Part shown: positions 37,229 to 57,010 of the stretch, piece after piece
How the letters are laid out: each line of letters starts with the position of its first letter
Numbering within the stretch: the first letter of the stretch is position 1
NCBI GenBank assembly: GCA_963728565.1
Contig: CAVSLC010000023.1
Coordinates: forward strand, 285,427-349,426
Reading direction: 5' to 3'
Length of the DNA stretch: 64,000 bases
Origin: an uncultured delta proteobacterium
GTDB lineage: Bacteria > Desulfobacterota > Binatia > UBA9968
Translations under genes and position numbers: made by a program
The notes under the pieces: model-generated
The model's database searches: none
Told to the model about the DNA's origin: nothing
The model's input: the letters and a program-made list of their open reading frames with translations, nothing else

Positions 37229-37275
37229 ATAAAGCTTCGATAAACTTGGCCTTTGAACACTTCGAGGAGAACCCG

Positions 37276-38770: not shown

Positions 38771-38827
38771 ACCTTGCGCCCTCAGGGCTTGCCGCTTTAC
38801 ACGAGGTTAGGTCGAGGATCAAGATTC

Positions 38828-39571
38828 GTGGCGAAAAATAACGAACATCAAGGACGCGTAGCAGTGATCACCGGAGGAAGTGGCGGCATCGGCACCGGCA
38901 TAGGGCGGCGTCTGCAATCCGCGGGAGTAACCGTGCACGTGCTAGACCTGAGTGACAATGCACCCGCCGATCCTGGCGCCGCGGGAGCCATACATTTTCA
39001 CTCGGTGGATATCGGTAACGAGGCTCAAGTCGACTGTGCCTTCGACCGCATTCAGTCGTTTTCTAAGAGACTGGATTACCTGGTTTGCTGCGCGGCAATA
39101 TTTCGACCTCGGCCCTTCCTCGAACTCGAACCCGAGAACTGGCAGCAAACTCTGCAAACCAACCTTACGGGTTCGTTTCTCTCTTGCCGGGCGGCGCTTC
39201 GCTGCATGCGCCCCGGAAAATTCGGTCGCATCGTATTATTCTCTTCGATGATTGCGAGAACCGGGAGCGTCCAGGGGGCGCACTACGCGGCGTCAAAGGG
39301 TGGCATACTAGGTCTTGCGCGGACCGTAGCGATAGAGGCGGCGGCCGACAACATCCGGGTGAACACAATCTCTCCAGGAATCACCGATACACCACAACCA
39401 CGCGCTTTTTTATCAGATGCCGATTTGGCGCAGAGACGGTCGCGCATTCCACTGGGACGGATCGGGGCTGTCGAAGATATGGTTGACGCCTGCATGTTTC
39501 TTCTGAGCGAACAGAGTTCCTATCTTATCGGACAGGATCTGCGTGTTAATGGGGGAGCGTCTCTGTGGTGA
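38828..39571 (+). CDS. SDR family oxidoreductase
   Basis: TGGSGGIG, YAASK, ISPGITDTPQPR (resembles the SDR at 12401). Confidence 0.92.
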   Translation: MAKNNEHQGRVAVITGGSGGIGTGIGRRLQSAGVTVHVLDLSDNAPADPGAAGAIHFHSVDIGNEAQVDCAFDRIQSFSKRLDYLVCCAAIFRPRPFLELEPENWQQTLQTNLTGSFLSCRAALRCMRPGKFGRIVLFSSMIARTGSVQGAHYAASKGGILGLARTVAIEAAADNIRVNTISPGITDTPQPRAFLSDADLAQRRSRIPLGRIGAVEDMVDACMFLLSEQSSYLIGQDLRVNGGASLW

Positions 39572-40331
39572 CTCAGACAGACAGCCGGGTCAGTATTATC
39601 ACCGGCGCGGGGAGTGGCATCGGCAAAGCAACCGCGTTGAGGTTGGCACATGCCGGCTGCATCATTTGCGCCTGTGACATCAATGAAGAGGGGCTCAGGG
39701 AAACAGCAAAAACGATCCAATCGAGCGGGCGGTACGTGTTTTACCGGCTTGATTGATGTCCGCGACCGCGAGTCTGTCGAAAGCTGGTGTTCAGAAGTTG
39801 CCGACAGGTTCGGAAAAATTGATTGCCTTTTCAGCAATGCTGGACTGAATGCACGGTCAGCTGTTGATGAGATGACTCGTTACGCAATGGAATCTAGTTA
39901 TCGATACTCACGTTACCGGCGCATTTAATTTCTGTCAGCCCGTTTTACGTCACATGGTCGAGCGCAGGAGTGGCGCGATCGTTATAACATCTTCCGATTT
40001 CGCCGTAGTCGGTGTCCCTAATGCAGCGAATTATTGCGCGGCCAAGACGGCGCTCTATTCGCTAACAAAATCTCTCGCGCTCGAGTTCGCACCCTATGGA
40101 ATTCGAGTAAACGCGATTGGTCCGGGTCCCATCGATACACCGTTGCTTCGCTCCGGCCGCACACAGGAACAGTATGAAAGCGCTCGTCGTAATTTTGAGA
40201 GCCGGCTGCCGATCAAGCGCCTCGGGCAGCCGGAAGAAGTTGCTGCCGTCGTTGAATTTCTGCTGAGTTCCGGCGCCGCCTACATCACCGGGCAACTTGT
40301 TCAGCCGAACGGCGGTCAAGTTGTCTGGTAA
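39565..40331 (+). CDS. SDR family oxidoreductase, apparent frameshifts near 39735 and 39885
   Basis: TGAGSGIG (39565 ORF), SNAG (39650 ORF), YCAAK and IGPGP (39954 ORF). Confidence 0.82.
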
Positions 40332-40431: not shown

Positions 40432-41277
40432 ATGATGTCATATCCTTACGACGATGGGCGATTGATACTGGCGTTACAGATCGATCATTCCCGGGTTGCG
40501 GGATATCTCGCCGCGCACTGGGGTAACAAGGAATTTGCCAAGCCCGAGCCTTACGCGTCCGTGGTTCTAGCGGCGCAGGAACACGATACCGGTTGGTGGG
40601 AATGGGAAATGTGCCCATCAACTCTCAACGACAAGGGTTATCCGCTTGATTATCACGATGGCAGCCTTAAATACCTGGGGCAGCTTCGGCTGGACTTTTA
40701 TAAGAATGCGGTAGACCGCGTCCGGCAACGCGATAGTTATGCAGCCATGTTAATGGCGATGCATGGCGTCGCGCTCATGAACGGCGGCTACGGCAAATAC
40801 GCTTATCCTCCTGACCGTACCTCGGACCCGCGGGTGAAGGCTTACGTCGAACATCAGGAAGAACTGCGGCTCAAATTGCTCGATGATCTGCGCAAATCGG
40901 ATCAGTTCAAGGCTTTCAGCTCCGAGGATCAGGTGTGGACGAATTACGAATATATGGAGGTCTTCGACCAGCTGGCGCAATTCCTATGTAATCGCTATCC
41001 GTTGACCAGTGAGGCGCGCAAGCTTGGGCCGACTAAGACGCTAAATGATGTGGACGTACCGGTAAGACCGGGCGCGAGGCCGGTAAAAGTAAGTCTCGAT
41101 ACCATTTCTGCTAATCGCGCAGTTGTTAAACCGTATCCTTTCGACCTCGATCCTTTAAGTGTTTCTTTTTCGGCGCGGCTGATACCCAATCGCGCTTATA
41201 AGAATCCGGAAGATTTTCTTGAGGAATTTTACCGCGCAGAACGTCTTACGATCACGCATACCTTAGCGTCCGCATAA
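40432..41277 (+). CDS. DUF3891-like protein (HD-type metal motif), copy 1
   Basis: QIDHSRVAGYLAAHWGN, QEHDTGW, AMHG, FDQLAQFLC, PYPF; family recognised from memory of these motifs, needs HMM confirmation. Confidence 0.75.
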   Translation: MMSYPYDDGRLILALQIDHSRVAGYLAAHWGNKEFAKPEPYASVVLAAQEHDTGWWEWEMCPSTLNDKGYPLDYHDGSLKYLGQLRLDFYKNAVDRVRQRDSYAAMLMAMHGVALMNGGYGKYAYPPDRTSDPRVKAYVEHQEELRLKLLDDLRKSDQFKAFSSEDQVWTNYEYMEVFDQLAQFLCNRYPLTSEARKLGPTKTLNDVDVPVRPGARPVKVSLDTISANRAVVKPYPFDLDPLSVSFSARLIPNRAYKNPEDFLEEFYRAERLTITHTLASA

Positions 41278-41305
41278 TTGCTTCTATATCCATACAGAGA
41301 CAACC

Positions 41306-42166
41306 ATGAAGCCAGCTTCATTCGACTATTATTCTCCGGAATCACTAACCGAGGCTTTACAGCTACTGGAGCAGCACCGCGATGCGGCAAGGCCGCTTGC
41401 TGGTGGACAAAGCCTGGTTCCGATGATGAATTTTCGTTTGGCTCGCCCGGCGCTTTTGATCGATTTGAATAATCTTCGTGAACTCAGTTTCCTCAACATT
41501 GTAGATGGCGAATTGCGTATCGGTGCCATGACCAGACAGCGTGCCCTGGAGCGATCCGCAGTGGTGGCCGCGGGTTGGCCACTCTTGCAAGAAGCAGCTC
41601 GGCACATTGGCCACATCCACATCCGTAATCGCGGCACCATAGGGGGAAGTATCGCTCACGCTTATCCGTCCGCGGAACTCCCTCTGGCAATGATGGCGCT
41701 GGACGCATCCTTCCTGTTGCGTAGCATGCAGGGAGAAAGAATTGTTCCCGCCAGGGATTTTTTCATCGATGTAATGACAACCATCCTGGAGCCGAGCGAG
41801 CTTTTAGTCGAGATACGCGTGCCTCAGGCAAAATCACGAACTGGTTGGGGCTTTCAGGAAGTCAGTAGACGCCACGGAGATTTCGCGTTGGCAGCCGTGG
41901 CGAGCGTAATCTCGCTTCGGGAGGATCGGAGCATAGACAAAGTAAGATTAGTCTTTACCGGTGCGAAACCCCACCTCTCGAAGAAGACAGATCCTCTTAT
42001 AGGACAAAAGCCCGACCGGACAATGTTTTCGGATATCGCCGCTACCGCCGCGGCGGAACTCGACACGGAATCCGATATTCACGCAAGCTCTGAATATAGA
42101 CGGGAAGTAAGTCAGGTGCTGGCGCGCCGCGTTTTGGAAGAGGCAGCAGCTCGCGCTGCAATGTAA
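41306..42166 (+). CDS. Xanthine dehydrogenase family FAD-binding subunit, copy 2
   Basis: MKPASFDY, LAGGQSLVP, IRNRGTIGGS, RRHGDFA, SDIHASSEYRR. Confidence 0.94.
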   Translation: MKPASFDYYSPESLTEALQLLEQHRDAARPLAGGQSLVPMMNFRLARPALLIDLNNLRELSFLNIVDGELRIGAMTRQRALERSAVVAAGWPLLQEAARHIGHIHIRNRGTIGGSIAHAYPSAELPLAMMALDASFLLRSMQGERIVPARDFFIDVMTTILEPSELLVEIRVPQAKSRTGWGFQEVSRRHGDFALAAVASVISLREDRSIDKVRLVFTGAKPHLSKKTDPLIGQKPDRTMFSDIAATAAAELDTESDIHASSEYRREVSQVLARRVLEEAAARAAM

Positions 42167-42203
42167 ATGTAACACCTGGAACAGAGGCGGAAGAGAAGCA
42201 AAA

Positions 42204-42695
42204 ATGAGCAAGCGTGAGATCAACGTTACTATCAACGGCCGTCAGTACCGAGGCGATGTCGAGCCTCGAAAACTTCTGACTGATTTCCTACGGGACGATC
42301 TTGGTCTTACCGGTACCCATGTCGGCTGCGAACACGGCGTTTGCGGGGCGTGCACTGTTCTTTTGGATAATCAACCCGTGCGCGCCTGTCTGATGTTCGC
42401 GGTGCAAGTAAACGGCGCCGAATTGAAGACAATCGAGGGGTTGGCTCCCACTCCGACCGCGCTCCATCCGCTGCAGGAAAAATTTTGGGAGCTTCACGGC
42501 CTGCAGTGCGGTTTTTGCACTCCGGGAATTTTGCTGACCGCGGTAGCGCTCCTACAAGAGATCCCTAACCCCAGTGAAGACGACATCCGCGAATGGATCA
42601 GCGGAAACTTGTGTCGCTGCACCGGTTACTACAACATCATCAAATCCATTCAGGAAACAGCGAAGACCTTGAATACGGGCAAGTCAAATTTATAG
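42204..42695 (+). CDS. Xanthine dehydrogenase family (2Fe-2S) subunit, copy 2
   Basis: GCEHGVCGACTV, QCGFCTPG, GNLCRCTGY. Confidence 0.96.
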   Translation: MSKREINVTINGRQYRGDVEPRKLLTDFLRDDLGLTGTHVGCEHGVCGACTVLLDNQPVRACLMFAVQVNGAELKTIEGLAPTPTALHPLQEKFWELHGLQCGFCTPGILLTAVALLQEIPNPSEDDIREWISGNLCRCTGYYNIIKSIQETAKTLNTGKSNL

Positions 42696-42799
42696 CTGCG
42701 CTTTTCTGTTCTCTTTCCGTTTCAAGTCAAACGAATAACACTGGTATTTCGATCTAATGCCGATTTTAAGGGCATTGCGAGTTCAGAGAGTTACAACTT

Positions 42800-45107
42800 G
42801 TGGCTTACATTGGTTCAAGAGTTAAACGTAAGGAAGATTTAAGGCTGCTTCGCGGCATCGGTAAGTACGTTGCCGATGTTCATCGTGTAGGCATGACGCA
42901 CGCGACAATTCTCCGCAGCGCGCACGCGCATGCGCGGATCGTCAAAATAGATGCGGCTGCTGCCCTGAAGTTGCCTGGAGTCGTCGGTGTGCTTAGCGCA
43001 AGCGACATGGCCGGAGTGAAAAGCATTCCGATGCGGACCGGCATAATTCCAGGAATGGAGCGCTCGCAGCAATTTCCCATAGCAGCCACCAAAGTGCGTT
43101 ATGTGGGGGATCCGATAGCCGTGGTGGTGGCGGAAAATCGTTACATCGCCGAAGATGCCATGGAGCTTATCGACGTGGAGTACGAGGCGTTGCCTGCGGT
43201 GATCGATGCCCGGAGCAGCATGCAGGCAGAAGCACCGCGACTTCATGAGGCCGTGCCGAACAACATCCCGGCGAATTTCCAGGTCGATGTCGGCGATGTC
43301 GATAGCGCGTTCGCTAAGTGTGATCTCATCATCGAAGAGGAATTTTCGATCCAGCGACATGCGGCTGTGCCGTTGGAGACGCGCGGCTTAGTAGCGGAGT
43401 TCGACGAAGGCCGCAGAAGCCTCACCGTGTGGGGACCGACTAAAATGACGCACGCCAACTGGCGTATTCTCTCCGATCTCATCGGCCTGCCGCAGAGCTG
43501 TATCCATTTGATCGAGCCGGAAGTGGGCGGCGGCTTCGGTGCCCGGGGCGAGTTCTATCCCGAAGACTTCCTGATCCCGTTCGCGGCCATGCATTTCCGA
43601 AGGCCGGTCTGCTGGATCGAGGACCGCTCGGAAAATCTAAAAACGATGAATCAGTCGCGGCAGCAGAACCATCGGGTCAAGATCGGCGTCAAAAACGATG
43701 GCACCATCATGGCCATGGACGCCGAGATTCTCTTCGATATGGGCGGGTACACCAGAACCCATGGCGGTACTCCGGCGATTGCCGCGTCGGCGATGCTGCG
43801 CGGCCCATTTCGCATCAAAAACTTTCGCGCTAACGTTTTTTGCGTGCTGACCAACAAAACTCCGGTGGGCACCTATCGCAGTCCTGGACGCTATGAGGCG
43901 AACTTCGTACGAGAACGGCTGTTAGATATGGTTGCACGCCGACTCCACATCGACCCAGCGGATATCCGACGACGTAACTTCATTAAGCAAGATGAGATGC
44001 CTTATGATCACGGCCGGCATCCCTACCACAATATACGTTACGACAGCGGCGATTTTTCACTTCAGTTCGAACGTGCTCTGGAGCACATCGGCTATGAAAA
44101 ACTGCAGGACCGCTGCGCAGATGCTAAAAAAGGAGGCGGCGCCATCGGCATCGGCATCGGCTGTTTCGTGGAAACCAGCGGCAGAGGACCTTGGGAGTAT
44201 GCTCGTGTCGAAGTGGACAATGGCGGCAAGGTGGTTTTGTATTCGGGCTGCAATTCACTTGGTCAAGGAATCGCGACAGCCTTGAGCCAAATCGTCGCGG
44301 ATGAACTGCAGGTTGCGATCGAGGATGTACGCGTGATCCACGGTGACACCGCAAAGGTTCCGTACGGAAACGGTAGTAATGCCAGCCGTTCGACCGTGAT
44401 GGCTGGCAGCGCCGCGGTGGGAGCGTCGCGCAAGGTTAAGGACAAGCTTTTGCGCCTGGCATCTATGGCGCTGGAAATCGACATCGGCGATCTTGTTCTC
44501 CAAGATGCGCACGTTGTGGCACGGGGCGCGCCAGATCGATCTCATAAGCTTCGCCGCTCTTGCCCGCTTGGCGTTGCCTGGTCCAGCTCTGAAAAGCGGT
44601 ATAAGCCCGGGAATTTCTGAGGAGGATTTCTTCGCCACGGACCAGCGTCCATTTCCGTACGGTGTGCATGTCGCGGTGGTCGAAGTAGATCGTGAGACCG
44701 GCGAAATAAAGATTCTCGACTATTTAGTAACCGAAGATATCGGAAGAAAAATCAATCCCATGATTGTTGAGGGACAAATGGCCGGTGGCTTGGCACAGGG
44801 AATCGGCGGCGCTTTGTTGGAGGAGTTTGTCTACGCTGAAGATGGTCAGCCCCTCGCGACCAGTTTCATGGACTATCTGATGCCGACCGCGATGGAAATG
44901 CCCAAGGCGCAGCTGATCTCGACTGAAGATTTCCCTTCCCCGCTCAACCCCCTGGGTGCCAAAGGCGCAGGCGAAGGAGGAATCACTGCGGCTGGCGCGG
45001 CCTTGGCTAATGCAGTTTCGAACGCTCTTGGTGTTGAGGTAACCAAGCTGCCCCTCAAACCGGACTACCTGTTGAATCTGATCAAAATTGCCAACGCCCA
45101 TTCATAA
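42800..45107 (+). CDS. Xanthine dehydrogenase family Mo-binding subunit, copy 2, frameshift near 44545
   Basis: RKEDLRLLRG, GGGFGAR, GTYRSPG, LGQG; C-terminus with AKGAGE in ORF 44493-45107. Confidence 0.9.
43455..43902 (+). repeat. 448-nt near-identical direct repeat (copy 1) inside Mo-subunit gene 2
   Basis: Matches 50288-50735 with five mismatches by my reading. Confidence 0.9.
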
Positions 45108-45356
45108 GCTCGATTAAAAATCGACCATCGGGGCGTTGATTGTTATAGCCTAGAAGTAAACGTTCATACGATTATCGTCCGTATGACCTTCACCGCACTC
45201 AGAGATCATTGTGTACCTATCCGGGTCACTGGCTGAATAAAACGCGAATTGGCAATCAAGTTCAGTCTTGTTCCTGAACTGACCCAACGATGTCTGAACA
45301 TCGAGAATAGCTCATGAGAGAAAGGCTTAGGAGGTAGGGTATGGCTGTCTTGGATC

Positions 45357-46451
45357 ATGCAACGAGTAAATCGAAAATTAACTCACGTGGGTTGTCGATC
45401 GATAGTGATTCTATTGCTGCTAGTGCCGTATATTCAGCTAAGCAATGTACGAGCCCAGGGCTTCAACGAGAAGGAAGTCGCAGCCTTCTACAAGGGGAAA
45501 ACGGTAACGCTTACCGTCGGTTTCGATCCGGGCGGAGGCTATGACATAGCCGCGCGCATCGTTGCCAAGCACCTCGGAAAACATATTCCCGGCAATCCCA
45601 ATATAATCGTCTCGAACCGACCAGGCGGAGGTAGCCTGGTAGCGGCAAATCTCGTCTACACGACATTGGCCCAAGACGGCACACAAGTTGTCGATTTCCA
45701 CCCGCAGATGCTGCTTCAGCAAGCGCAGGGCCGTGAAGGTATTAAGTTCGACGGCTTGAAATACCATTGGCTCGCAAGCCTCAATGCGGGCAGCACCTCC
45801 TGCGCCGTGCATGTGGAGAGCGGGGTTAGTCATCTCGATCAGATCAAAGGTTCGGATGGAAAAGTGGTGACCATGGGAGTGGAGGCTCCGGGATCCGGTA
45901 TTACCGATGGCACAGCAGTAATCAGAGCGGCATTAGGTCTAAAGTTCCGCATGATTTACGGATACACCGGACAGCGTCCAATTGTGAATGCCGTCTTGAG
46001 TCGCGAGGTGGATGGAATCTGCTCCAGTTGGGATTCTTTCACTTCGACTTTGAAAAATCTGTTTGAGCCGAAACAGTTAGTCCGCATGCTGGTGATTAAT
46101 GAGCCTGAGGTTCCGAAGCATCCCTGGCTCAAGGATGCTGTTGCCGCCCAGGCTGCCGCGCCGGACGACACGACGCGCAGGTTGCTCCGGGTCGTGGATG
46201 GACCTAGGGCAATTTCCTACCCATTTGCCGTCGGCCCTAAAGTTCCGAGAGATCGCGTTTTAGCATTACAGCAAGGGTTTGAGAAAATGTTGAAGGATCA
46301 AACGTTCATATCCGATTACGAAAAAACCGGGCGAAGCTATGAGCCAAAGAATTGGAAAGAAGTGACGGAAGTCGTGAATGATCTTCTGACGATGGATGAC
46401 AAGACCAAGAAAGCTCTGGAGGAAGCCCTAAAGCGCAAGGAAGCGCCTTAA
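45357..46451 (+). CDS. Bug/TctC substrate-binding protein
   Basis: FYKGKTV, GFDPGGGYD, NRPGGGS, GPKVPRDRV. Confidence 0.9.
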   Translation: MQRVNRKLTHVGCRSIVILLLLVPYIQLSNVRAQGFNEKEVAAFYKGKTVTLTVGFDPGGGYDIAARIVAKHLGKHIPGNPNIIVSNRPGGGSLVAANLVYTTLAQDGTQVVDFHPQMLLQQAQGREGIKFDGLKYHWLASLNAGSTSCAVHVESGVSHLDQIKGSDGKVVTMGVEAPGSGITDGTAVIRAALGLKFRMIYGYTGQRPIVNAVLSREVDGICSSWDSFTSTLKNLFEPKQLVRMLVINEPEVPKHPWLKDAVAAQAAAPDDTTRRLLRVVDGPRAISYPFAVGPKVPRDRVLALQQGFEKMLKDQTFISDYEKTGRSYEPKNWKEVTEVVNDLLTMDDKTKKALEEALKRKEAP

Positions 46452-46525
46452 GAAGATATCGGCCGCGACACACGGTCTTAGTTGAAATGCAACGAACATC
46501 GTAAGTTCGATTTACCCCTAACCTA

Positions 46526-48023
46526 ATGGCAGAGGCTTTTCTAGCGGGCCTTACCGCTGTCTTTACCTACCCTACATTCCCGTTGTTGCTGATCGGGATC
46601 TTGGCCGGGTTTGTAGTCGGTATTCTTCCCGGCGTCGGGGGTGTTACCACTCTCGCACTCATGCTCCCTTTCACTTTTGATATGAAGCCGGTTGAGGCAT
46701 TCGCGTTTCTTCTGGGGATGCTCGCCGTTACATCCACGACAGGAGATATCACTTCCATACTCTTTGGTATACCCGGGGAGTCTATTTCTGCCGCAACCAT
46801 CGTCGACGGTCATCCGATGGCCAAGAACGGCGAAGCTGGACGCGCGCTAGGCGCGGCGCTCATGAGCAGCTTGGTGGGAGCAATTATCGGAGCAGGAGTA
46901 TTGGCGATAAGCATTCCTGTTATCACTCCGATTGTGTTGGCGTTTAAATCACCTGAGTTTTTTGCCCTCGCCTTGGTAGGGGTCACATTTGTCGCCGCTT
47001 TAAGTGGCACGAACAAGCTCAAAGGCATCGTCGTAGCCGGGCTCGGACTGTTACTCTCTGTGGTTGGACTGGATTCGCAAACCGGCGTGCCTCGTTACAC
47101 GTTAGGGATGATTGAGTTCTGGGAAGGTTTGAGTTTGGTGCCGGTTACGGTGGGACTCTTTGCCATCCCTGAAGTCGTCGATCTATGGATCAAAGGAACC
47201 AGTATCGCGGAGAAGAAAATAGGCAAGATCGGCGGTGTCATGCAGGGCGTCAAAGATACATTTGTCTATTTGGGTATCACGGTCCGTTGCAGTCTCATTG
47301 GCACAATCATAGGAATCATACCTGGTTTAGGGACGGGCGTCTCCCAATGGGTGGCTTACGGGCACGCAGTACAAAGCGCGGCGGATAAAAGTAAGATTTG
47401 GCAACGGAGATGTCCGGGGCGTGCTCGGACCGGGTGCGGCTAACAACTCGGGGATCGGCGGTTCGCTCATTCCAACGCTGGGTTTTGGCATTCCTGGAAG
47501 CGTCTCCACGGCTATTTTGCTCGGGGCGTTCTTGATCCAAGGAATCGTTCCGGGTCCGAGCATGTTGACTGAAAATCTGGGCCTTACTTTTTCATTCGTT
47601 TGGATGATTGTCATCTCCAACGTCATTACAGTTGTCTTGAGCTTCATGTTTCTGAACCAGCTTGTGAAGATCACTTACGTCAAGGGCGCGCTTCTCTTGC
47701 CGGCTATCCTGCTACTGGTTTTCCTTGGATCCTACGCCGACTCCAATTCGATGCTCGACATGTTTCTGACGATTGTCTTCGGGCTACTCGGATTGACGAT
47801 GGTCTATTTGGGGTGGCCGCGACCGCCGTTAATTTTGGGTCTGGTTTTGGGCACGCTCATCGAACGAAACTTTCTAATATCGTATGAACTTCATGGTTTG
47901 GCTTTGTTTCTCAAACCCATCGTCGTGGGCACGTTCATCCTCGGGTTTGGCAGTTTGATGTTGTCTTCTTATCGCCGCCGGACGGCGAAATCGGAGAGTG
48001 CGCGTGTTTCACAGAGCGCTTGA
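46526..48023 (+). CDS. tctA: Tripartite tricarboxylate transporter large permease, frameshift near 47395
   Basis: GILPGVG, ILFGIPG, DGHPMAKNGEAGRAL, GIIPGLG; continues ANNSG...IPTLGFGIPGS, PPLILGLVLG in ORF 47421-48023. Confidence 0.88.
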
Positions 48024-48549
48024 TCTAGTCTTTGCCTGTTTCGTTTCGCTGGTGATCCTCTGGTTCGTTTGGGAGGCCAGGGATTGGTCATTTCACTCAC
48101 GGTTATTTCCTTGGTCGGTGGGGATTACTGTTCTGATTCTGGCATTGGCTCAAGTAGCTATTTCGGTGCGCAACTTTCAGTTTGGTTCATCGAAAGACGA
48201 ACTGTTGAGAAGGTGAGACCTCAAGATCATCAGGCGGCCGAGGTCGAGCCCTCTGAAATATGGCGTCTGGTGACGATCGGGAGTTGGATCGCAGTGTTTT
48301 TCTTGGGAATTTGGCTGTTCGGGTTCCGCTTGGGGAGTCTGATTCTCACAGATTGCATTTTTAAAAGTCGCCGCCAAGGAAGGTTATAAGCAATCCTTGA
48401 TCCTTGGGTTGGTCAATTATTTCTTTTTCTTGATCATTTTCGATTTCGCGCTGGGGGTTCCTCTTCTCGAAGGCGCTATTGCCCAATGGCTAGGAATTGA
48501 ATCTCTGGACGGTTTCGTTCTACAAGAGTTGCGCAAACTATGGACATGA
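47998..48549 (+). CDS. TctB-like small permease, apparent frameshifts near 48200 and 48350
   Basis: Four hydrophobic segments in successive frames (SRLFPWSVG; WIAVFFLGIWLFGF; IFDFALGVPL) directly after tctA. Confidence 0.65.
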
Positions 48550-48682
48550 ATTTATAGCTCTCAGAGTCGGTGTTGAGCCGGCCTGCGGCAGGTAACTGAT
48601 GTATAGGATCTGCAGCTAGGTGTCACGATCGCTCCTGGTTCTGAGTTGGGAAAACACGCAATAGAGAGAGGAATAATTCACA

Positions 48683-49522
48683 ATGATTATTGCAGACAAT
48701 TCTGAATGGTACCGAATGATCACACAAAATGACCATGGCGATCTCGCCGGGCAGTTTGCTGCTCATTGGGGAAATAAAAAGTTTGCACGCCTAAAGCCCT
48801 ATGGGTCAATGGTGCTGGCGGCTGAGGCCCATGATAACGGCTGGTGGGATTGGGACGTATCTCCATCTGTGGATGAACAAGGCGCTCCCATACCTTTTAC
48901 TCGAACGCCACGAGAATTCAGATCGACTTTTTACGGCAAAGGCATCGACAACGTGATCTCTCGAGACCTTTATGCAGGATTGATCGTCAGCATGCACGGC
49001 GTGGGTCTCACGAAAAAGCGTTATGGAACGATGCCGACAATGGTGGAGCGTCAAGACGAATACTCTCAGCAGTTCGTAAAAGACCGCGAACCTGATCACG
49101 ATCAGATGCTGGCAAGGCTAAAACAGATGGAACAGTATGCCGGCGCAACGGATCAGGAACAAATATGGTTGAACTATCTGATGATGCAGGTGTTCGATCG
49201 GCTGTCACTTTTTTTCTGTTCTAACTACGACATTACAACTGTGCCGGAGACCGGCGGTCACACAGCTGGCAAAGGTTATTATGGCCCTTCGATCAAACCA
49301 ACCCCGGTAAAATTGGGCGAGGAGGAGGTCGATCTGAAGTTGCGTGTTCTCGATCGCGACAACGTGCTCGTAGAACCCTATCCGTTCGATCAGGCGCCGT
49401 TGCGAGTCAGCGTTCGGGGAAAACTGATTCCGCGTGTTGCCTACCGATGCCAGGAGGAATTCAGAGAGACCTACGCCAAGGCACAGCGGGAGCAGTTTGA
49501 GTTCACACTTAGATCGGCGTGA
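48683..49522 (+). CDS. DUF3891-like protein, copy 2
   Basis: TQNDHGDLAGQFAAHWGN, EAHDNGW, VSMHG, FDRLSLFFC, PYPF; GAGG RBS. Confidence 0.78.
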   Translation: MIIADNSEWYRMITQNDHGDLAGQFAAHWGNKKFARLKPYGSMVLAAEAHDNGWWDWDVSPSVDEQGAPIPFTRTPREFRSTFYGKGIDNVISRDLYAGLIVSMHGVGLTKKRYGTMPTMVERQDEYSQQFVKDREPDHDQMLARLKQMEQYAGATDQEQIWLNYLMMQVFDRLSLFFCSNYDITTVPETGGHTAGKGYYGPSIKPTPVKLGEEEVDLKLRVLDRDNVLVEPYPFDQAPLRVSVRGKLIPRVAYRCQEEFRETYAKAQREQFEFTLRSA

Positions 49523-49631
49523 TCATCCTGGACGTTTGGTGATAGCGGCCGCTTATCTCCAGCGATGCATTGCAAGGCGAATAGCGACTGTCGAGCCATA
49601 GATCCGAGCTTTTTTCGGCAGGTAAACAGCG

Positions 49632-51936
49632 ATGCCATATATTGGTTCAAGAACTAAACGCAAGGAAGACATAAGGCTGCTACGGGGCAGCGGCAAGTAT
49701 GTTGGCGATATCCAGCGCGTTGGAATGGTTCACGCTGCTATTTTGCGGAGCACTCAGGCGCATGCGCGCATCACAAGAATCGATGCAACCCGCGGCCTTG
49801 AAGCTGCCCGGTGTTATCGGTGTTCTTACCGCGGCTGATATGCCGGGATTGAAAACAATTCCGATGCGTACCGGTGTCATTCCAGGCCTGGAACGCTCGC
49901 AGCAAACTCCAATCGCGACGGACAGGGTGCGCTATGTTGGCGACCCTGTCGCAGTGGTGGTTTCGGACAGCCGTTACATTGCCGAGGATGCGCTCGAGCT
50001 TATCGACGTTGAATACCAGGCCCTCGGCGTTGTCACGGACGCGCGCCAAAGCATGCAACCGGGAGCTCCCCAACTGCATGACGCGACGCCAAACAACATC
50101 GCTGCCAACTTTCAGGTAAATGTCGGCGACGTCGACGCGGCTTTCGACGGATGTGATCTGGTATTTGAAGAAGAGTTCTCTACTCAGCGCCACTCCGCAG
50201 TGCCGCTGGAAAACCGGGGTTTAGTCGCGGAGTGGGACGAGGGGCGGGGACTTCTAACGATGTGGGGACCGACCAAGATGACCCACACCAACTGGCGTAT
50301 TCTCTCCGATCTCATCGGCCTGCCGCAGAGCTGTATCCATTTGATCGAGCCGGAAGTGGGCGGCGGCTTCGGTGCCCGGGGCGAGTTCTATCCCGAAGAC
50401 TTCCTGATCCCGTTCGCGGCCATGCATTTCCGAAGGCCGGTCTGCTGGATCGAGGACCGCTCGGAAAATCTAAAAACGATGAATCAGTCGCGGCAGCAGA
50501 ACCATCGGGTCAAGATCGGCGTCAAAAACGATGGCACCATCATGGCCATGGATGCCGAGATTCTCTTCGATATGGGCGGGTACACCAGAACCCATGGCGG
50601 CGTTCCGGCCATTGCCGCGTCGGCGATGCTGCGCGGCCCATTTCGCATCAAAAACTTTCGCGCTAACGTTTTTTGCGTGCTGACCAACAAAACTCCGGTG
50701 GGCACCTATCGCAGTCCTGGACGCTATGAGGCGAATTTCGTGCGTGAGAGGCTTGCCGATATGATTGCCCACCGTTTAAGGTTGGACCCAGCGGACGTAA
50801 GGCGGCGCAATCTAATTCGTCGTGAAGAGATGCCCTACGACTTGGGCAAGCATCCCTTTCACTACATGGTCTACGATACCGGAGATTTTATCGCCCAGCT
50901 CGATCTGGCATTAGATCGTTTCGGATACGATAAACTCCAGAACAGCTGCGCTGCCGCCAAGCAAGAAGGCCGAGCCGTGGGAGTCGGTATCGGCTGCTTC
51001 GTCGAAACCAGCGGCATTGGACCGTGGGAGTATGCTCGAGTCGAGATCGACAGTGGCGGCAAAGTCCTGCTGTACTCCGGTTGCAACTCCGTTGGTCAAG
51101 GCATTGCCACGGCGCTCAGCCAGATCGTCGCCGATGAACTGCATTGTTCAATCGATGACGTGAGCGTGTTTCACGGCGACACCGCGACAGTTCCGTACGG
51201 CAACGGTAGTAACGCCAGCCGCTCTACCGTCATGGCTGGCAGCGCCGCGGTCGGCGCCTCGCGCAAAGTGAAAGAGAAGCTCTTTCGCTTAGCCTCTTCG
51301 AGTCTAGAAATCGACGTAGCCGACCTTATCCTCCAAGATGGTAGAGTGGTTGCATTGGGCGCACCGGACCGTTCGCTCGGCTTTGACGACCTCGCGCGCA
51401 TGGCATTGCCCGGTCCGGCGCTTAGGAATGGAATCACACCTGGTATCTCGGAAGAAGATTTCTTCGCTACTGACAAGAGACCATTCCCTTACGGACTGCA
51501 TATCGCAGCCGTTGAAGTCGATACGGAAACCGGCCAGATAAAAATTCTCGACTATTTTGTCACTGAAGACGTCGGACGAAAAATCAATCCGATGATCATC
51601 GAAGGGCAAATGGCAGGCGGTCTGGCGCAGGGTATCGGCGGAGCAATGTTGGAGGAATTTGTTTACAGCGAAGATGGTCAGCCTTTGGCAACTAGCTTTA
51701 TGGATTACCTGTTGCCCACGGCAATGGAAATGCCCAAAGCACAGTTCATCTCAACAGAAGAATTCCCAAGTCCCCACAATCCGCTGGGCGTGAAAGGCGC
51801 CGGCGAAGGCGGCATCACCGCAGCTGGGGCAGCATTGGCGAACGCCGTGTCGAACGCGTTGGGTGTCGAAGTGAAAAAGTTACCGCTGAAGCCTGACTAT
51901 GTTTTGGAATTGCTCAAGCGAAGTCGTGTCGTGTGA
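49632..51936 (+). CDS. Xanthine dehydrogenase family Mo-binding subunit, copy 3 (close paralogue of copy 2), frameshift near 49790
   Basis: MPYIGSRTKRKEDIRLLRG (49632 ORF) joins AALKLPGV... of ORF 49699-51936; GGGFGAR, GTYRSPG, VKGAGE. Confidence 0.9.
50288..50735 (+). repeat. 448-nt near-identical direct repeat (copy 2) inside Mo-subunit gene 3
   Basis: Matches 43455-43902. Confidence 0.9.
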
Positions 51937-52250
51937 GATCAGGTTCTAAACATCGGGCAAGCTTTTTTATGACTATTATCCCTAATCCGACATTATTCGA
52001 ATCCCGCGAGGCCAGCGAGCCCTACAGCCGTGGGCAATGGGTCAGTGCCTTAAAGGCCACCCCGCATTCCCCTAAAGGTGATATTTCTTACGTCGGGGCC
52101 TTAGAGCCAACGGCGTGCTCGACTGCCCACGGCTTCCAGTCTCGCCATCCTCGCTCACTGCTGACAACGCTCAAGTATTGTCGGATTACGGTTATGTCTT
52201 GGTTCATTTGCCGTACATCGTCCTAGCTGCGAGAAGACCGCTAACGGCCT

Positions 52251-53231
52251 ATGCCGGAAAACGAGTTGAATTCAATGGATATCATCGACGTGCACGCCCA
52301 TCTTTACCCGGAAGGCAGTTTCACCGAGGTGCTCAAGAACGATAGCGAATTCGAGTTGGTCGAAAACCCGCGGGGCCAATCGCTGGTCTACCGCGGTAGT
52401 CATGTTATGTCGATGCCCCTGGGCCAGGCTGATATGGCGCTGCGTTTGGCCTCGATGGATGAAGCGGGCATCGGGATGGCCATACTTTCGGTGGGTGCAT
52501 TGAATATCGGCTGGGCACGCGCGCGTACGGCGGCTGCGGCGCGTATTGTCAATGATGGTCTAGCTGCGGTTTGCCGCCAACATCCAGGGCGGTTCCGGTT
52601 TGTCGCAGTGTTGCCGTGCGCCAACGAAGCAGAGATGAAGAGCGAGCTCGATCGAGCTCAAGATCTGGGCGCGGCGGGTGTCGGTATAGCAACCAACATC
52701 GGCGAGTTTCAACTGCACGCGCCGGAGATACGCCACTTTTGGCGTGAAATGAATCGCCGCAAGCTGATGGTGTTGGTGCATCCAACCTGTCCCTGCGACG
52801 CTCCGCAGAACGATCCGGGAACGTTTCTCTCCGTAGGTTACCCTGCCGAGACCGCAATGGCAGCCACCAAACTGGCGCTGGCTGGTGTGTTGGCCGAGTG
52901 CCCTGACGCCAAAATAGTGTGGTCGCACCTGGGCGGCAGTTTGCCGATGATTTTAGACCGCATTGATCGTGGTTATCAGCGTTACTCCAGTTGCCCTCAT
53001 CCTCCCGGTTACTACTTGCGTCGTTGTTACTTTGACACCGCATGCGCTCACGGTCCTGCGTTTGAATGCGCGCGCGCAACCTGGGGCGGCGGCGCCCTGG
53101 TGTTCGGCACCGATGTTCCCCACGTGCCGAATACCGAGAAAGATACCCTTAGGGCTTTGGAAGGTCTTCAATGGTCCGATACCGAACTGCGAGATATCTA
53201 TGCTGGCACGGTGCGGAGATTAATGATTTGA
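52251..53231 (+). CDS. Amidohydrolase_2 family protein (ACMSD / 6-methylsalicylate or 5-carboxyuracil decarboxylase-like)
   Basis: IIDVHAH, RLASMDEAGI, LVHP, SHLGGSLP, YFDT, FGTDVPH. Confidence 0.9.
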   Translation: MPENELNSMDIIDVHAHLYPEGSFTEVLKNDSEFELVENPRGQSLVYRGSHVMSMPLGQADMALRLASMDEAGIGMAILSVGALNIGWARARTAAAARIVNDGLAAVCRQHPGRFRFVAVLPCANEAEMKSELDRAQDLGAAGVGIATNIGEFQLHAPEIRHFWREMNRRKLMVLVHPTCPCDAPQNDPGTFLSVGYPAETAMAATKLALAGVLAECPDAKIVWSHLGGSLPMILDRIDRGYQRYSSCPHPPGYYLRRCYFDTACAHGPAFECARATWGGGALVFGTDVPHVPNTEKDTLRALEGLQWSDTELRDIYAGTVRRLMI

Positions 53232-53361
53232 CGGATTTTTTTATCTCTAGTTCGGGAGTTCAGGCGGGATTCCGGTGCTCATCGGATCTCTGTAGGCTAT
53301 CTTTTTATGGAAGTGGTAAGAGCTCTAACGGTGGCCTTAAACAAGGCGGGGAGAACATAAA

Positions 53362-54204
53362 ATGATGGTATGCCCTTTTGATGAGAGTCGTCTACTGCTC
53401 ATTTTGCAAGTCGACCATTCCAAGGTTACCGGTTGGTTCGCCGCCCATTGGGGCAACGATGACTTTGCGCGGCCAACCCCGTATGCGGCAATGGTGTTAG
53501 CAGCTCAGGAACATGACACCGGTTGGTGGGATTGGGAGATCAAACCCCAGCTCAACAGCGAGGGGTTACCGCCCGACTATATCGGCAGCATCAAACATCT
53601 GGGCGGAAAAGTTTGGCTCGATTTCTATCGCCACGGAATACTGCGCCTCGCCCAACAGGATCCTTTCGCTGGTTACATCGTTTCCTTACATGCGGACGGT
53701 TTGCTGACACAGGGCCGTGGTCTACTGCCTTATATGCCGGACTACGGGATATATCCGGAGGTGGCAGAATTTCTCAGCGAACAGGAGAGTTATCGCGCCG
53801 AGTTGATGAAGCTGCTGAAAGCCTCGGCGGAGTACGCTGACTTTGTCTCAGATGAGCAGCTATGGACCAACTTCAAACTTATGGAAGTCTACGATCAGAT
53901 GGGGCAGTTTGTCTGCAACCGCTACCCCTTAAACAGCACAATTCGCCAGAACGGTCCCAGTAATACAATGAGTAATGTTCCTACTCCGACCAAACCAGGC
54001 AGCGCAGACACGATTCTGAACTTCACCATAAAAGATGAAAGCCGGGCCAGGGTCGAGCCTTACCCGTTTGACATGGATCCGCTCCTCGTCTCATTCCAGG
54101 GCCGTCTGATACCCAAACGCTCCTATGGAACACAGGATGAATTTCTTCAGGAATATTATCGCGCTGAGCGGCTCGCGGTTAACTACTCGTTACACTCGCG
54201 GTAA
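53362..54204 (+). CDS. DUF3891-like protein, copy 3
   Basis: LQVDHSKVTGWFAAHWGN, QEHDTGW, VSLHA, YDQMGQFVCNRYP, PYPF; closest to copy 1. Confidence 0.75.
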   Translation: MMVCPFDESRLLLILQVDHSKVTGWFAAHWGNDDFARPTPYAAMVLAAQEHDTGWWDWEIKPQLNSEGLPPDYIGSIKHLGGKVWLDFYRHGILRLAQQDPFAGYIVSLHADGLLTQGRGLLPYMPDYGIYPEVAEFLSEQESYRAELMKLLKASAEYADFVSDEQLWTNFKLMEVYDQMGQFVCNRYPLNSTIRQNGPSNTMSNVPTPTKPGSADTILNFTIKDESRARVEPYPFDMDPLLVSFQGRLIPKRSYGTQDEFLQEYYRAERLAVNYSLHSR

Positions 54205-54234: not shown

Positions 54235-55281
54235 TTGTTTCGACCATCCAATCCGACAATGCGGATCATCTTTTTTATGGCTATCGTTCTTTGGGCTGGT
54301 TATTTGCCCGGAAAAAGCTTCGGTCAACCGACGCCGACCTACAGGATTAAACTAGCTACCTCAACCGCCGGGCTGGATTTCGCGCCGATCTGGATCGCGC
54401 AGCGGAAGGGCTATTTCAAAGAAGAAGGAATTGAATTCGAACACATCTTGACCACCGGTGGAGCGGTTACCATGGCGGCGCTGATCAACGGTGATGTGCA
54501 GTTCGCGTCAACCGCAGCATCGGATGTTCTCGTCGCCCGGTCCAAGGGCGACCGGTTGTTAGCCCTAGGTATCTTTCCCGCGTCGTTGGAGTGGCACATC
54601 GCCACCACCAACAAATTTTTGGAGTCGCGGGGATTGAGCAAGGGCAAGGTCGAGAAGATGACGGTGCAACAGAAAGTTCAAATGTTGAAGGGAACTACGA
54701 TTGGCGCCGCAACCGTTGGCGGGGCACCAGCGCAAGTTGTCCGATATATTCTTCGGCAGAACAATCTAAGACCGGACTCTGACGTGCGGTTTGCTGCTGT
54801 AGGAGCTGGCACTGCGCGCGTCGGTGCTCTCCGGCAAGGTCAGGTCGAAATGATTGTGGGAGGGATACCCGACACCGAGCAGCCGGAGCTTGAAGGCTGG
54901 GGGATTACCTACATACGGATCGGGCATGAGATCGATGTCTTCAAGGACTATCCGCACGAGTCGATTCATGCCACCGAAGCTTATCTCAAGAACAATGTCG
55001 ATTCGACTCGGGCCCTGCTGCGAGCGGTCGTGCGTGGTAACAATCTGATCCTCGACAACCCCTCAGAATCCGACGAAATCCTGGTAAAGCACTTTCCTAA
55101 AATTAGTCCGTCAGTTCTTCGAACAGTGATGGCGCGGAGTCGCGCGACGTTCCGACGAGATATGAAGATGACCAAGTCCGGATGGGATAACATGCACAAA
55201 GTTTTCATTTCCGTAGGCCTGCTTAAGAGCGATCTGAATACCGCGGAAGGCGAATTCTGGACTAACAAGTACTTACCGTAA
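54235..55281 (+). CDS. NitT/TauT ABC solute-binding protein
   Basis: AGGAGG RBS, APIWIAQRKGYFKEEGI, LKGTTIG, FWTNKYL. Confidence 0.9.
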   Translation: MFRPSNPTMRIIFFMAIVLWAGYLPGKSFGQPTPTYRIKLATSTAGLDFAPIWIAQRKGYFKEEGIEFEHILTTGGAVTMAALINGDVQFASTAASDVLVARSKGDRLLALGIFPASLEWHIATTNKFLESRGLSKGKVEKMTVQQKVQMLKGTTIGAATVGGAPAQVVRYILRQNNLRPDSDVRFAAVGAGTARVGALRQGQVEMIVGGIPDTEQPELEGWGITYIRIGHEIDVFKDYPHESIHATEAYLKNNVDSTRALLRAVVRGNNLILDNPSESDEILVKHFPKISPSVLRTVMARSRATFRRDMKMTKSGWDNMHKVFISVGLLKSDLNTAEGEFWTNKYLP

Positions 55282-55318: not shown

Positions 55319-56176
55319 ATGGAAGTGGAAGACAGCACGCGAAGCGATTCAAGCCAAGAAGCCGCTACTACGTTTCACCCCGAATTACGAAAAAGCACCT
55401 TGTTCCGCAGCCCGGGCTTTCTCGTTGTACTACCCGGTTTGATCACGGTGATCGGTTGGGAAATTCTGGCCTGGCGCTGGCCCATCGTAGCCAAACTGGT
55501 AAGTCGCCCTAGTGATGTGACGCGAGGCGTCGTTCATGTTGTTTGGACGGGCGAGATCTGGCAACACCTCGAAGCGACGCTCACCGAAATGGCGGTGGGT
55601 TATCTAATCGGTGCGCTTAGTGGCGTGAGCCTGGGCTTCCTATTCGGGCGTGTGAAACTTCTGGGCGATATTTTTAACCCGTACATTTCTCTTTTCAACG
55701 GCATACCAAAAGTCGCGTTGGCCCCGGTGTTTGTGATTTGGTTTGGTATCGGCCTGATGTCCAAGATCGCGATTATCATGACCATGGTATTCTTCGTCGT
55801 ATTTATAAATACTTTCGCTGGGCTTCGATCGATTAATGAGGAGTACGTCTCGATTACACGCATTATGGGCGCTTCGCGCTGGCAAGTTGTACGTGAGGTT
55901 TTTTTGCCGGCGACCCTGCCATTCATTCTTGTCGGCCTACGGGCAGGCATACCCTTTTCGGTTATCGGCGCCGTTGTCGGTGAATTCATTGCCGCAACCA
56001 AAGGACTTGGGTATTTCATCAATTATCACCAGGGCACGTTTGACACCAATGGAATCTTTGTCGGTGTCGCCATTCTAGCGGGGCTTGTAGTCGTGCTCGA
56101 TGGCCTCCTTTCGATAGTAGAGCGTCGCCTGCTCAAATGGCGGCCTGAGGTTGAAGCCAAAAATGTCAGCGCTTAA
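55319..56176 (+). CDS. NitT/TauT ABC transporter permease
   Basis: IPKVALAPVFVIWFGIG, RIMGASRWQ, GAVVGEF...GLG. Confidence 0.94.
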   Translation: MEVEDSTRSDSSQEAATTFHPELRKSTLFRSPGFLVVLPGLITVIGWEILAWRWPIVAKLVSRPSDVTRGVVHVVWTGEIWQHLEATLTEMAVGYLIGALSGVSLGFLFGRVKLLGDIFNPYISLFNGIPKVALAPVFVIWFGIGLMSKIAIIMTMVFFVVFINTFAGLRSINEEYVSITRIMGASRWQVVREVFLPATLPFILVGLRAGIPFSVIGAVVGEFIAATKGLGYFINYHQGTFDTNGIFVGVAILAGLVVVLDGLLSIVERRLLKWRPEVEAKNVSA

Positions 56177-56239: not shown

Positions 56240-57010
56240 ATGGATCCAATTATCGAGCTTTCCAAAGTCACAAAAACCTATCGGTCCAAAGGTAAGGCCG
56301 TACTGGCTCTCAAAGATGTAAATCTTCCGGTGGAACGGGGCTCGTTTACGACGCTAATCGGACCCAGCGGGTGCGGCAAAAGCACACTACTTAAAATCAT
56401 CGCGGGAATTGCGTTGCCCTATGAAGGACGCATGCGCTACAAGGATCGGGAAATCACTTCGATCAACACCGATATCGGCTTTGTTACCCAAGACAGCAAT
56501 CTTTTCCCCTGGTTGACGCTCATCCAGAACGTCGAACTTGCACTCAAGATTCGCGGCGTAGCACGGGATCAGAGAAAAAGAACCGCGCAAAAATATATCG
56601 ACACGATGCAGCTGAGCGGTTTTGAGAGCCACTATCCCTTCGAACTGTCCGGCGGAATGCAGAAACGCGGTTCGATTATCCGAACATTGATATATGATCC
56701 AGAAATCATTTTGATGGATGAACCCTTCGGCCCGCTAGATGCGCAAACGCGTATGGTCTTGCAAGACGAACTATTACGAATCTGGGATTCAAACAAAAAA
56801 ACTATCCTATTTGTTACTCACGATTTAACCGAGGCTATCGCGCTGTCAGATAAAGTAGTCCTATTTACCAGCCGTCCCGGCACGGTGAAGCGAGTGTTCG
56901 ATGTGCCGTTAGCGCGGCCCCGAAACGTTTTTGAAATTCACAATGAAAAAGGGTTTACTGAGATCTATCATGAGATCTGGCAATACTTCAAAAACGAAAT
57001 CACCATATAA
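56240..57010 (+). CDS. NitT/TauT ABC transporter ATP-binding protein
   Basis: GPSGCGKST, LSGGMQKR, LMDEPFGPLD, FVTHD. Confidence 0.96.
   Translation: MDPIIELSKVTKTYRSKGKAVLALKDVNLPVERGSFTTLIGPSGCGKSTLLKIIAGIALPYEGRMRYKDREITSINTDIGFVTQDSNLFPWLTLIQNVELALKIRGVARDQRKRTAQKYIDTMQLSGFESHYPFELSGGMQKRGSIIRTLIYDPEIILMDEPFGPLDAQTRMVLQDELLRIWDSNKKTILFVTHDLTEAIALSDKVVLFTSRPGTVKRVFDVPLARPRNVFEIHNEKGFTEIYHEIWQYFKNEITI

Follow-up and report, generated by a model that had tools for sequence, protein, structure and literature searches.

Three DUF3891 paralogues within a conserved hydroxylase and decarboxylase gene cassette of uncultured Binatia: candidate metal-dependent catabolic enzymes

The genome of an uncultured delta proteobacterium from soil (Binatia, UBA9968; assembly GCA_963728565.1) holds on contig CAVSLC010000023.1, at positions 285,427 to 349,426 of the forward strand, a stretch of 64,000 nucleotides (hereafter the window) in which three genes of the Pfam family DUF3891 (PF13030) are interleaved with the genes of a molybdenum hydroxylase of the xanthine dehydrogenase (XDH) family and of an ACMSD-like decarboxylase. 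The three genes are real, expressed-looking DUF3891 paralogues, each belonging to another clade of the family, and the arrangement to which the first and the third belong recurs in other metagenome-assembled genomes (MAGs). From sequence and position it is tentatively proposed, with slightly less than even confidence, that DUF3891 proteins are metal-dependent catabolic enzymes whose substrates, aromatic or heteroaromatic intermediates that carry no phosphate, arise close to the steps of hydroxylation and decarboxylation.

Three intact members of the DUF3891 family

The initial annotation of this DNA had noticed three paralogues of about 280 residues and had assigned them to DUF3891, and both observations were borne out. 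Copy 1 (clade D1, 40432-41277, 281 amino acids), copy 2 (clade D2, 48683-49522, 279 amino acids) and copy 3 (clade D3, 53362-54204, 280 amino acids) are intact open reading frames (ORFs) on the plus strand, which match PF13030 with 146.6 bits (E 1.2e-42), 169.0 bits (E 1.7e-49) and 134.8 bits (E 4.8e-39), respectively, the gathering cutoff of the family being 24 bits, and which cover the model from positions 1-8 to 218-219 of 219. No other Pfam family, XdhC_CoxI included, matched the three copies at E<=0.01, no NCBIfam model matched them, and the PADLOC anti-phage models gave 0 families at E<=0.01. In a three-way alignment copy 1 shares 36% identity with copy 2 and 48% with copy 3. Invariant among the three are, in copy 1 numbering, Q16-x-D18-H19, A27-A28-H29-W30-G31-N32 and H51-D52-x-G54-W55, furthermore H111 following (A/S)(M/L), D179 following F/Y, and P234-Y235-P236-F237. 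The motifs quoted in the initial annotation are hence all present in the three copies, whereas in AAHWGN the His is no family-wide feature, being present in just 45 of 98 members. Every near-invariant residue of the family is kept in the three copies, which are ordinary members in this respect; what is novel is their context, namely three subclades in one array together with a conserved operon of XDH-family and ACMSD-like genes.

The family itself is of medium size, and the searches returned no assigned function for it, in line with what had been stated before. A profile built from the three copies found 2365 representatives (clusters at 50% identity) with E<=1e-3 as the limit and 1196 with E<=1e-10, and each of the 372 homologues found with copy 2 is labelled either DUF3891 or hypothetical. 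The literature search returned no published function for DUF3891, the text matches to PF13030 being Plasmodium gene names only, and neither an NCBIfam model nor a sequence relative in the PDB was found. Longer forms of the protein (P0147, P0176, P0198) carry no informative added domain.

The window is about 95% identical at the DNA level to several MAG contigs whose titles read Binatia, Deltaproteobacteria or 'delta proteobacterium' (loci L001/L043, L002, L003, L071). Between these close relatives the DUF3891 copies share 96-98% protein identity (copy 1, 98% to L001; copy 3, 97% to L043), and the ratio of nonsynonymous to synonymous differences (pN/pS) against the nearest relative amounts to 0.07 for copy 1, 0.20 for copy 2 and 0.12 for copy 3. 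The three copies are under purifying selection, and they are intact while five neighbouring genes carry insertions or deletions (indels). Since the copies are conserved in close relatives, show low pN/pS and stand in a gene order that recurs in other MAGs, the array is beyond what chance would give.

Conserved residues and resemblance to HD-domain proteins

Family-wide conservation was assessed with 98 diverse members (mean column identity 29%), whose residues are numbered here as in copy 2. Near-invariant are Q15 (96/98), H18 (97/98), H50 and D51 (97/98 each) as well as H105 and D172 (96/98 each), to which W29, G30, W54, Y97 and the P232, P234 and F235 of a P-x-P-F motif have to be added; position 58 is acidic in 99% of the members, and D/E17, D95 and N164 are kept in 72-88%. 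The family pattern that results, Q-x-[DE]-H ... H-D-x-G-W-x3-[DE] ... H ... D, includes the H ... HD ... D motif of the HD superfamily, with H18, H50-D51 and D172 each found in 96-97 of the 98 members, a correspondence that holds at the level of the pattern. The initial annotation had read the spacing of these residues as the metal-ligand pattern of HD-domain proteins, and while the motif thus extends to the family as a whole, a significant profile link to HD proteins did not emerge.

Comparison with YfbR of E. coli, a mononuclear HD phosphohydrolase, revealed the same H ... HD ... D order and, in the consensus lines, the common local contexts (D/E)-H-S/A-x-x-A, hydrophobic-H-D-x-G and Q-x-x-D-x-L. 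DUF3891 differs from YfbR in possessing the additional conserved H105 and the acidic position 58, in carrying a Gln in place of the phosphate-binding Arg, and in an extra C-terminal part of about 90 residues with the invariant P-x-P-F. Neither the window nor the related loci yielded a YfbR-like ORF, and a tblastn search with YfbR against plasmids returned essentially one gene (36.6% identity) and was not used; hhalign in global mode against YfbR gave a meaningless output.

A review of HD enzymes (PMC8177086) describes mononuclear HD members with the pattern H..HD..D, HD phosphohydrolases with an Arg located about three residues before the first His and conserved in all of them, and the diiron oxygenases MIOX, PhnZ and TmpB with six ligands in the pattern H..HD..H..H..D. 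Measured against this description, the phosphohydrolase Arg is missing from DUF3891, as 96 of 98 members have Gln three residues before H18 and none of the Arg or Lys columns is conserved to 90% or more. The diiron class, which had been mentioned earlier with MIOX and PhnZ, fits no better: DUF3891 is one His short of the six-ligand motif, because H105 is the sole conserved His between HD and D172 and the next His columns reach only 46-49%. What is common to DUF3891 and the diiron oxygenases is a His/Asp-rich metal site, putative in the former, on a similar motif; DUF3891 possesses three conserved His only, no sequence similarity to the oxygenases was found, and their substrates present an sp3 C-H next to an OH and not an aromatic ring. 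PMC8177086 also reports with PhnY/PhnZ and TmpA/TmpB that an HD oxygenase works in catabolism beside a hydroxylating enzyme, and with Ddi2, a cyanamide hydratase with an HD domain, that a small nitrogen compound is hydrated at a mononuclear Zn site. Ddi2 illustrates that the HD scaffold can do hydration, but it lacks the terminal Asp (H..HD), whereas DUF3891 keeps D172 in 96 of 98 members. Judged by its conserved residues, DUF3891 fails one defining feature each of the diiron oxygenases and of the phosphohydrolases, while three His and no fewer than three carboxylates are retained.

The cassette, its relatives and the gene array of the window

Relatives were obtained as 75 loci with 87 DUF3891 genes from one genome scan, which was seeded with peptide patterns from the window copies. 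A quick maximum-likelihood tree separated three clades, D2 with 7 rows (100% SH-aLRT), D1 with 22 and D3 with 27, of which each contains one window copy, and D1, D2 and D3 are old, deep subclades. Seven MAG loci (L004, L009, L012, L013, L029, L057, L068) contain the cassette D1-(SDR-SDR)-FAD-FeS-Mo-Amidohydro_2-D3, where SDR denotes short-chain dehydrogenases and FAD, FeS and Mo the three hydroxylase subunits; D3 is missing from the cassette in L014 and L016 and also in L007, a locus that stops at this point. The cassette genes lie on the same strand with short gaps, and identities to the window amount to 83-89% for the Mo subunit (against Mo2, the second of the two Mo subunits of the array) and 75-85% for D1 (against copy 1). 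The cassette is served by an NMT1-type ABC uptake system, and a two-subunit thiamine pyrophosphate (TPP) decarboxylase precedes it. In the window type, which also occurs in L001/L043 and L071, a further Mo subunit (Mo1), a TctC-like gene, TctA, a small ORF and D2 stand between FeS and Mo2, which means that the window lineage inserted a second Mo subunit, a tripartite tricarboxylate transporter (TTT) and D2 into the cassette operon. As far as the searches reach, the conserved operon and its three-clade arrangement are undescribed; the literature on Binatia and on the XDH family yielded nothing relevant.

Within 5 kb, an XDH-family gene was found for 43 of the 87 DUF3891 genes, an Amidohydro_2 gene for 38, UbiD for 18, a TPP decarboxylase for 15 and YCII, often directly 3' of clade D3 genes, for 17. 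A decarboxylase of any of the three families (Amidohydro_2, UbiD, TPP) was present in 58 of 87 cases and is thereby commoner than the XDH family, and 20 of 87 genes had neither an XDH-family nor a decarboxylase-family gene in that range. Following dereplication at 90% identity (59 clusters), the densities per 10 kb in successive 2.5-kb bins from the DUF3891 gene were 1.57, 1.05, 0.73 and 0.50 for the XDH family and 0.75, 0.28, 0.09 and 0 for UbiD. Two of the 59 representatives dropped out when genes were re-called; in the other 57, counted by clade, an XDH-family gene stands within 5 kb of 14/20 D1, 4/6 D2 and 13/31 D3 genes, and Amidohydro_2 is near 17 of the 31 D3 genes. Mapped on the tree, the presence of a Mo neighbour requires 19 changes, and 226 of 500 shuffles were as low. 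The association of DUF3891 with the XDH family is locally real but labile, and DUF3891 proteins are not obligatory companions of the Mo enzymes next to them. An enrichment of such neighbours had been expected in the initial annotation, and a local association is seen in the counts and in the density peak at the gene, but not as clustering on the tree; the expected co-occurrence with Mo subunits of the TYRSPG type applies to both subunits of the array but to only 15 of 26 full-length adjacent subunits.

Beyond the cassette, D3 orthologues of about 72% identity from high-GC Binatia belong to TctA-TctB-TctC-Amidohydro_2-DHDPS-MFS-D3-YCII-DHDPS-bicupin operons, for which no Mo enzyme was called in most of the loci of about 20 kb, L033 having one. 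In several of the high-GC Binatia genomes (L027, L028, L032 and L034-L037) the otherwise co-directional D3 operon is interrupted by an XcyI-type restriction endonuclease and a DNA methylase, a pair encoded on the opposite strand some 1-2 kb upstream of DUF3891; it is absent for example from L030, L031, L038 and L040. Dehalococcoidia relatives combine DUF3891 with LigB-like, MetE-like, amidase, Rieske and LLM genes, another group has the order UbiD-LysR-D-Amidohydro_2-NMT1-UbiD-UbiD-Mo-FAD, and L074 shows D2-CoxG-FAD-FeS-Mo, where the stop codon of D2 overlaps the start of CoxG. CoxG (SRPBCC) was observed directly 3' of DUF3891 at L074:1573-2058 and L019:10913-11401. Other direct neighbours are catabolic too, comprising amidase, the putative cyclase/formamidase family, pirin, cupins, LLM oxidoreductases and CoxG. 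More distant homologues (24-37% identity) were found in nine plasmid records, including haloarchaeal and Peribacillus plasmids; one plasmid context contains amidohydrolases, isochorismatase and IclR, and in a single case, the Haladaptatus pallidirubidus plasmid L080, a MOSC-domain gene (5966-6469) lies 0.5 kb upstream of the distant DUF3891 gene.

Loci of high GC content were re-called with a filter on the GC content of third codon positions (GC3). Above about 60% GC (L025-L040 and others) the longest ORFs are often Arg/Pro/Gly-rich wrong-frame or antisense frames, which even cluster across loci as 'conserved unknown proteins' and which the codon-position filter removes. The 'unknown 329/408/444-aa neighbours' of high-GC loci were by this filter recognized as wrong-frame artefacts and rejected.

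All genes of the array in the window lie on the plus strand and were, unless stated otherwise, assigned by Pfam. It begins with a binding protein that resembles NMT1/SsuA (35640-36563), followed by a TPP enzyme similar to sulfopyruvate and phosphonopyruvate decarboxylases (beta subunit, 36611-37228; alpha subunit, 37246-37776; Pfam and NCBIfam) and by a second NMT1-like binding protein (37811-38770), an order that is also found 5' of copy 1 in L001-L003, L009, L013, L016, L029 and L068. The TPP subunits reach 97.8-99.1 bits, which is under the NCBIfam equivalog cutoffs, and the top PDB match of the beta subunit is 9iz3, a putative phosphonopyruvate decarboxylase beta subunit (E 2.7e-14). Two SDR ORFs follow at 38774-40331, in a position equivalent to that in the relatives: the first gene (38774-39571) is intact, and of the second only an ORF for the C-terminal fragment (39954-40331) is left. 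Copy 1 ends 28 nt before the start of the gene for the CoxM-like FAD subunit (41306-42166; FAD_binding_5 and CO_deh_flav_C), which is followed by the CoxS-like 2Fe-2S subunit (42204-42695; Fer2 and Fer2_2), both assigned by Pfam and NCBIfam, and by Mo1 (42800-45107, in the split ORFs 42800-44620 and 44493-45107). Next to it come a divergent TctC/Bug-like binding protein of a TTT-type transporter (45357-46451; PDB 2qpq, Bug27, E 8.2e-5), TctA in the split ORFs 46526-47443 and 47421-48023, and an ORF of 106 amino acids without family match (48069-48389). The latter keeps its place after TctA in L001, L011, L043 and L071, where the order u364-TctA-u106 is retained, and it occupies the slot expected for a TctB-like small membrane subunit.

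Copy 2 precedes Mo2 (49631-51936, listed ORF 49699-51936), which shares about 78% DNA identity with Mo1 and is the orthologue of the cassette Mo subunit (83-89% protein identity in other MAGs). Both Mo subunits carry the TYRSPG motif. The hydroxylase is of the three-subunit XDH/CODH-family type, with a large subunit composed of Ald_Xan_dh_C, MoCoBD_1 and MoCoBD_2, and the top PDB match of Mo2 is 7dqx, 6-hydroxypseudooxynicotine dehydrogenase (E 1.8e-151); no hydroxylase subunit reached an NCBIfam equivalog cutoff, so that no substrate is assigned. The Amidohydro_2 enzyme (52251-53231; PF04909, E 2e-29, 103.7 bits) has ACMSD as its top PDB match (E 4.5e-24), with uracil-5-carboxylate and gamma-resorcylate decarboxylases next, its translation contains the N-terminal H-x-H metal motif as D-V-H-A-H, and by this similarity it is probably a non-oxidative decarboxylase. 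The Mo, Amidohydro_2 and TPP enzymes all score below their family cutoffs. After copy 3 come the three components of an ABC importer, namely its binding protein of the NMT1 type (54235-55281), its permease (55319-56176) and its ATPase (56240-57010), and then a YCII-family protein (57024-57338). The neighbours named in the initial annotation, that is copy 1 before the FAD/2Fe-2S/Mo genes, copy 2 before Mo2 and copy 3 between Amidohydro_2 and the ABC importer, were recovered as such by Pfam, and its remark that ring-cleavage dioxygenase and XdhC/CoxF genes are missing stands, none being Pfam-recognizable among the scanned window ORFs. Rfam gave 0 matches in the window and thus no riboswitch, and promoter and terminator scans gave no more matches than shuffled sequence.

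Compared with the close relatives, single-nucleotide insertions are found at 39731 and 39879 in the second SDR gene (against L001, L002, L003), at 44544 in Mo1 (against L001, L043, L071), at 47393 in TctA (against relatives) and at 49789 in Mo2 (against L001, L043), the last of which has the effect that 49631, where relatives share a conserved start codon, is not in frame with ORF 49699-51936. As all changes are 1-nt insertions and occur in one assembly, assembly indel error is suggested as the reason for the split neighbour genes, true decay being the alternative. Further along the window, a third gene for a Mo large subunit is likewise broken into two ORFs, one for the hammerhead (58717-59241) and one for the body (59216-61078).

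The array is part of a catabolic island of about 50 kb (window 11600-63176) with genes almost all on the plus strand. It contains four XDH-family large subunits (16130, 42800, 49699, 58717/59216), a UbiD gene (18965) that adjoins one of the Mo trios, two Amidohydro_2 genes and no fewer than seven NMT1-type binding proteins. Also encoded there are a Rieske oxygenase similar to VanA (26736), a gamma-glutamyltranspeptidase (31277) and two proteins that resemble arylmalonate decarboxylase/maleate isomerase (27937, 29108).

Candidate function and competing explanations

The positional conservation, the short gaps and the conserved His/Asp/Glu set favour a pathway enzyme, and DUF3891 copies would accordingly be soluble catabolic enzymes and neither subunits nor chaperones of the Mo hydroxylases. 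The residues of Q-x-[DE]-H, H-D-x-G-W-x3-[DE], H and D would make up a metal site, either mono- or dinuclear, on an N-terminal domain that is mostly helical and HD-like. The reaction would probably be hydrolytic or hydrating, with a lactam, a lactone or a ring-fission product being acted on, or else an oxygen-dependent cleavage, whereby hydrolytic or hydrating chemistry is considered somewhat more likely than oxygenation. D1 may act before, and D3 after, the hydroxylation and decarboxylation steps. Since the Arg has given way to an invariant Gln and the rest of the conserved set is aromatic in nature (W, Y, F, P-x-P-F), an aromatic or heteroaromatic intermediate without a phosphate group is the probable substrate.

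In bacterial pathways for N-heteroaromatic acids of the picolinate and quinolinate type, a Mo hydroxylase of three subunits occurs together with an Amidohydro_2 decarboxylase, and a cupin or NicX-type dioxygenase cleaves the ring; these pathways are not known to contain DUF3891. Common to them and the window are the XDH-family hydroxylase, the ACMSD-family decarboxylase and dedicated uptake, and among solved structures the window Mo subunit is nearest to a pyridine-ring hydroxylase (7dqx), whereas a cupin or NicX-type dioxygenase was not detected among the scanned window ORFs and the DUF3891 genes number two or three. A more far-reaching version of the proposal, which is held to be improbable, sees in DUF3891 a new HD-like branch with a three-His, multi-carboxylate and possibly dinuclear site, which would open hydroxylated pyridone- or pyrimidone-type rings, these being products of the Mo hydroxylase and the ACMSD-like decarboxylase, by means of oxygen or water, with D1 and D3 acting on successive intermediates, and which would replace cupin/NicX-type dioxygenases in Binatia and neighbouring uncultured phyla. 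The earlier conjecture that the missing dioxygenase points to ring cleavage by DUF3891 is weakened by the fact that orthologues co-occur with cupin (bicupin) or LigB-type enzymes.

The reading of DUF3891 as metal-dependent catabolic enzyme has to be weighed against results on the fold and on the neighbourhoods. Pfam HD matched 1 of the 98 members (E 0.013), and hhalign against YfbR alone or against a 29-sequence YfbR alignment gave probabilities of 0.3-0.45 and E 0.13-0.2, which is a weak test since the template is shallow (Neff 1.6), its homologue search having returned 79-100% identical sequences only. On the favourable side, H18, H50-D51 and D172 are collinear with H33, H68-D69 and D137 of YfbR in the extended, non-significant alignment. 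Searches with hmmsearch between DUF3891 and YfbR/HD gave nothing in both directions, sequence and profile searches of the PDB stayed at chance level (5jd3, E 0.1; 5eur, E 0.097; 4lqx, E 0.55), and no family whose fold or function is known showed significant similarity, so that HD membership of DUF3891 appears as a motif-level resemblance only. In favour of a mainly helical domain, secondary structure prediction gave 75 helix versus 26 strand calls for residues 1-190 and a strand-like region at 215-250, a crude and merely suggestive estimate from hydrophobic periodicity and propensity. Regarding the neighbourhoods, the 75-locus sample is biased towards one subfamily and a few phyla rich in such islands and comes with no genome-wide background rate, its genes were called by a simple in-house caller whose first version gave wrong-frame ORFs in high-GC loci, and no XDH-family gene is annotated within 7-9 kb in any of the 5 plasmid records inspected out of 9.

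Among the competing explanations, the one that survives best, though unlikely, is that DUF3891 is merely common in gene-dense catabolic islands and hitch-hikes there with an unrelated function, be it in stress, regulation or ligand binding. With 0.50 per 10 kb, XDH-family genes are still frequent at a distance of 7.5-10 kb, which suggests an island that takes in the entire region, the window itself is an array of about 50 kb that is nearly all co-directional and catabolic, neighbours differ widely between the clades, and distant members occur in unrelated contexts. Against passenger genes, however, stand the places of D1 before FAD and of D3 after Amidohydro_2, which are fixed though D1 is only 75-85% identical, the short or overlapping gaps, the density being highest next to the DUF3891 gene, and the conserved His and Asp set, which suggests catalysis.

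Less probable still is an ordinary HD phosphohydrolase, which would act on a nucleotide or on a phosphorylated cofactor precursor of the neighbouring enzymes (molybdopterin cytosine dinucleotide, prenylated FMN, TPP), the catabolic context then being indirect. H..HD..D is the pattern of mononuclear HD phosphohydrolases as given in PMC8177086, the commonest neighbours need elaborate cofactors (XDH family, UbiD, TPP enzymes, LLM), and a basic residue is found at position 247 in about 80% of the members. Nevertheless, the Arg that this source describes as conserved is the above-mentioned Gln, an Arg or Lys column of 90% is lacking, R113 is Gly in copies 1 and 3, and no HD family was matched significantly.

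The least probable explanation, and a poor candidate altogether, is one that the initial annotation had named as an alternative, that is a dedicated accessory of the XDH-family hydroxylases, which would either replace XdhC/CoxF in cofactor insertion and maturation or serve as docking or electron-transfer partner. It can draw on the four XDH-family large subunits in a window without an XdhC/CoxF-type gene among the scanned ORFs, on at least five adjacency arrangements (D-FAD-FeS-Mo; D-Mo; Mo-D-Mo-FAD-FeS in L023 and L024; D-CoxG-FAD-FeS-Mo in L074; UbiD-rich clusters), on the clade counts given above and on the drop of XDH-family density with distance, but it is made unlikely by the half of the relatives without Mo neighbours (44 of 87 genes lack an XDH-family gene within 5 kb), by the D3 orthologues in bicupin operons mostly devoid of a Mo enzyme, by a Mo label that is scattered on the tree, by the five plasmid contexts, by adjacent Mo subunits that belong to at least two subfamilies, and by the lack of similarity between DUF3891 and XdhC.

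The array and its relatives give a mid-sized, uncharacterized family a concrete and testable setting, which consists of a six-gene operon that is conserved among various uncultured lineages and encodes a Mo enzyme resembling pyridine hydroxylases as well as a probable non-oxidative decarboxylase, and the finding is to be seen as a useful lead and not as a surprise. Should DUF3891 proteins turn out to be ordinary phosphohydrolases or passengers, the outcome would be routine annotation. If proven to be enzymes, they would add a new reaction type to the few known for HD-like scaffolds and would fill a gap in the degradation of aromatic and N-heterocyclic acids by abundant soil bacteria such as Binatia.

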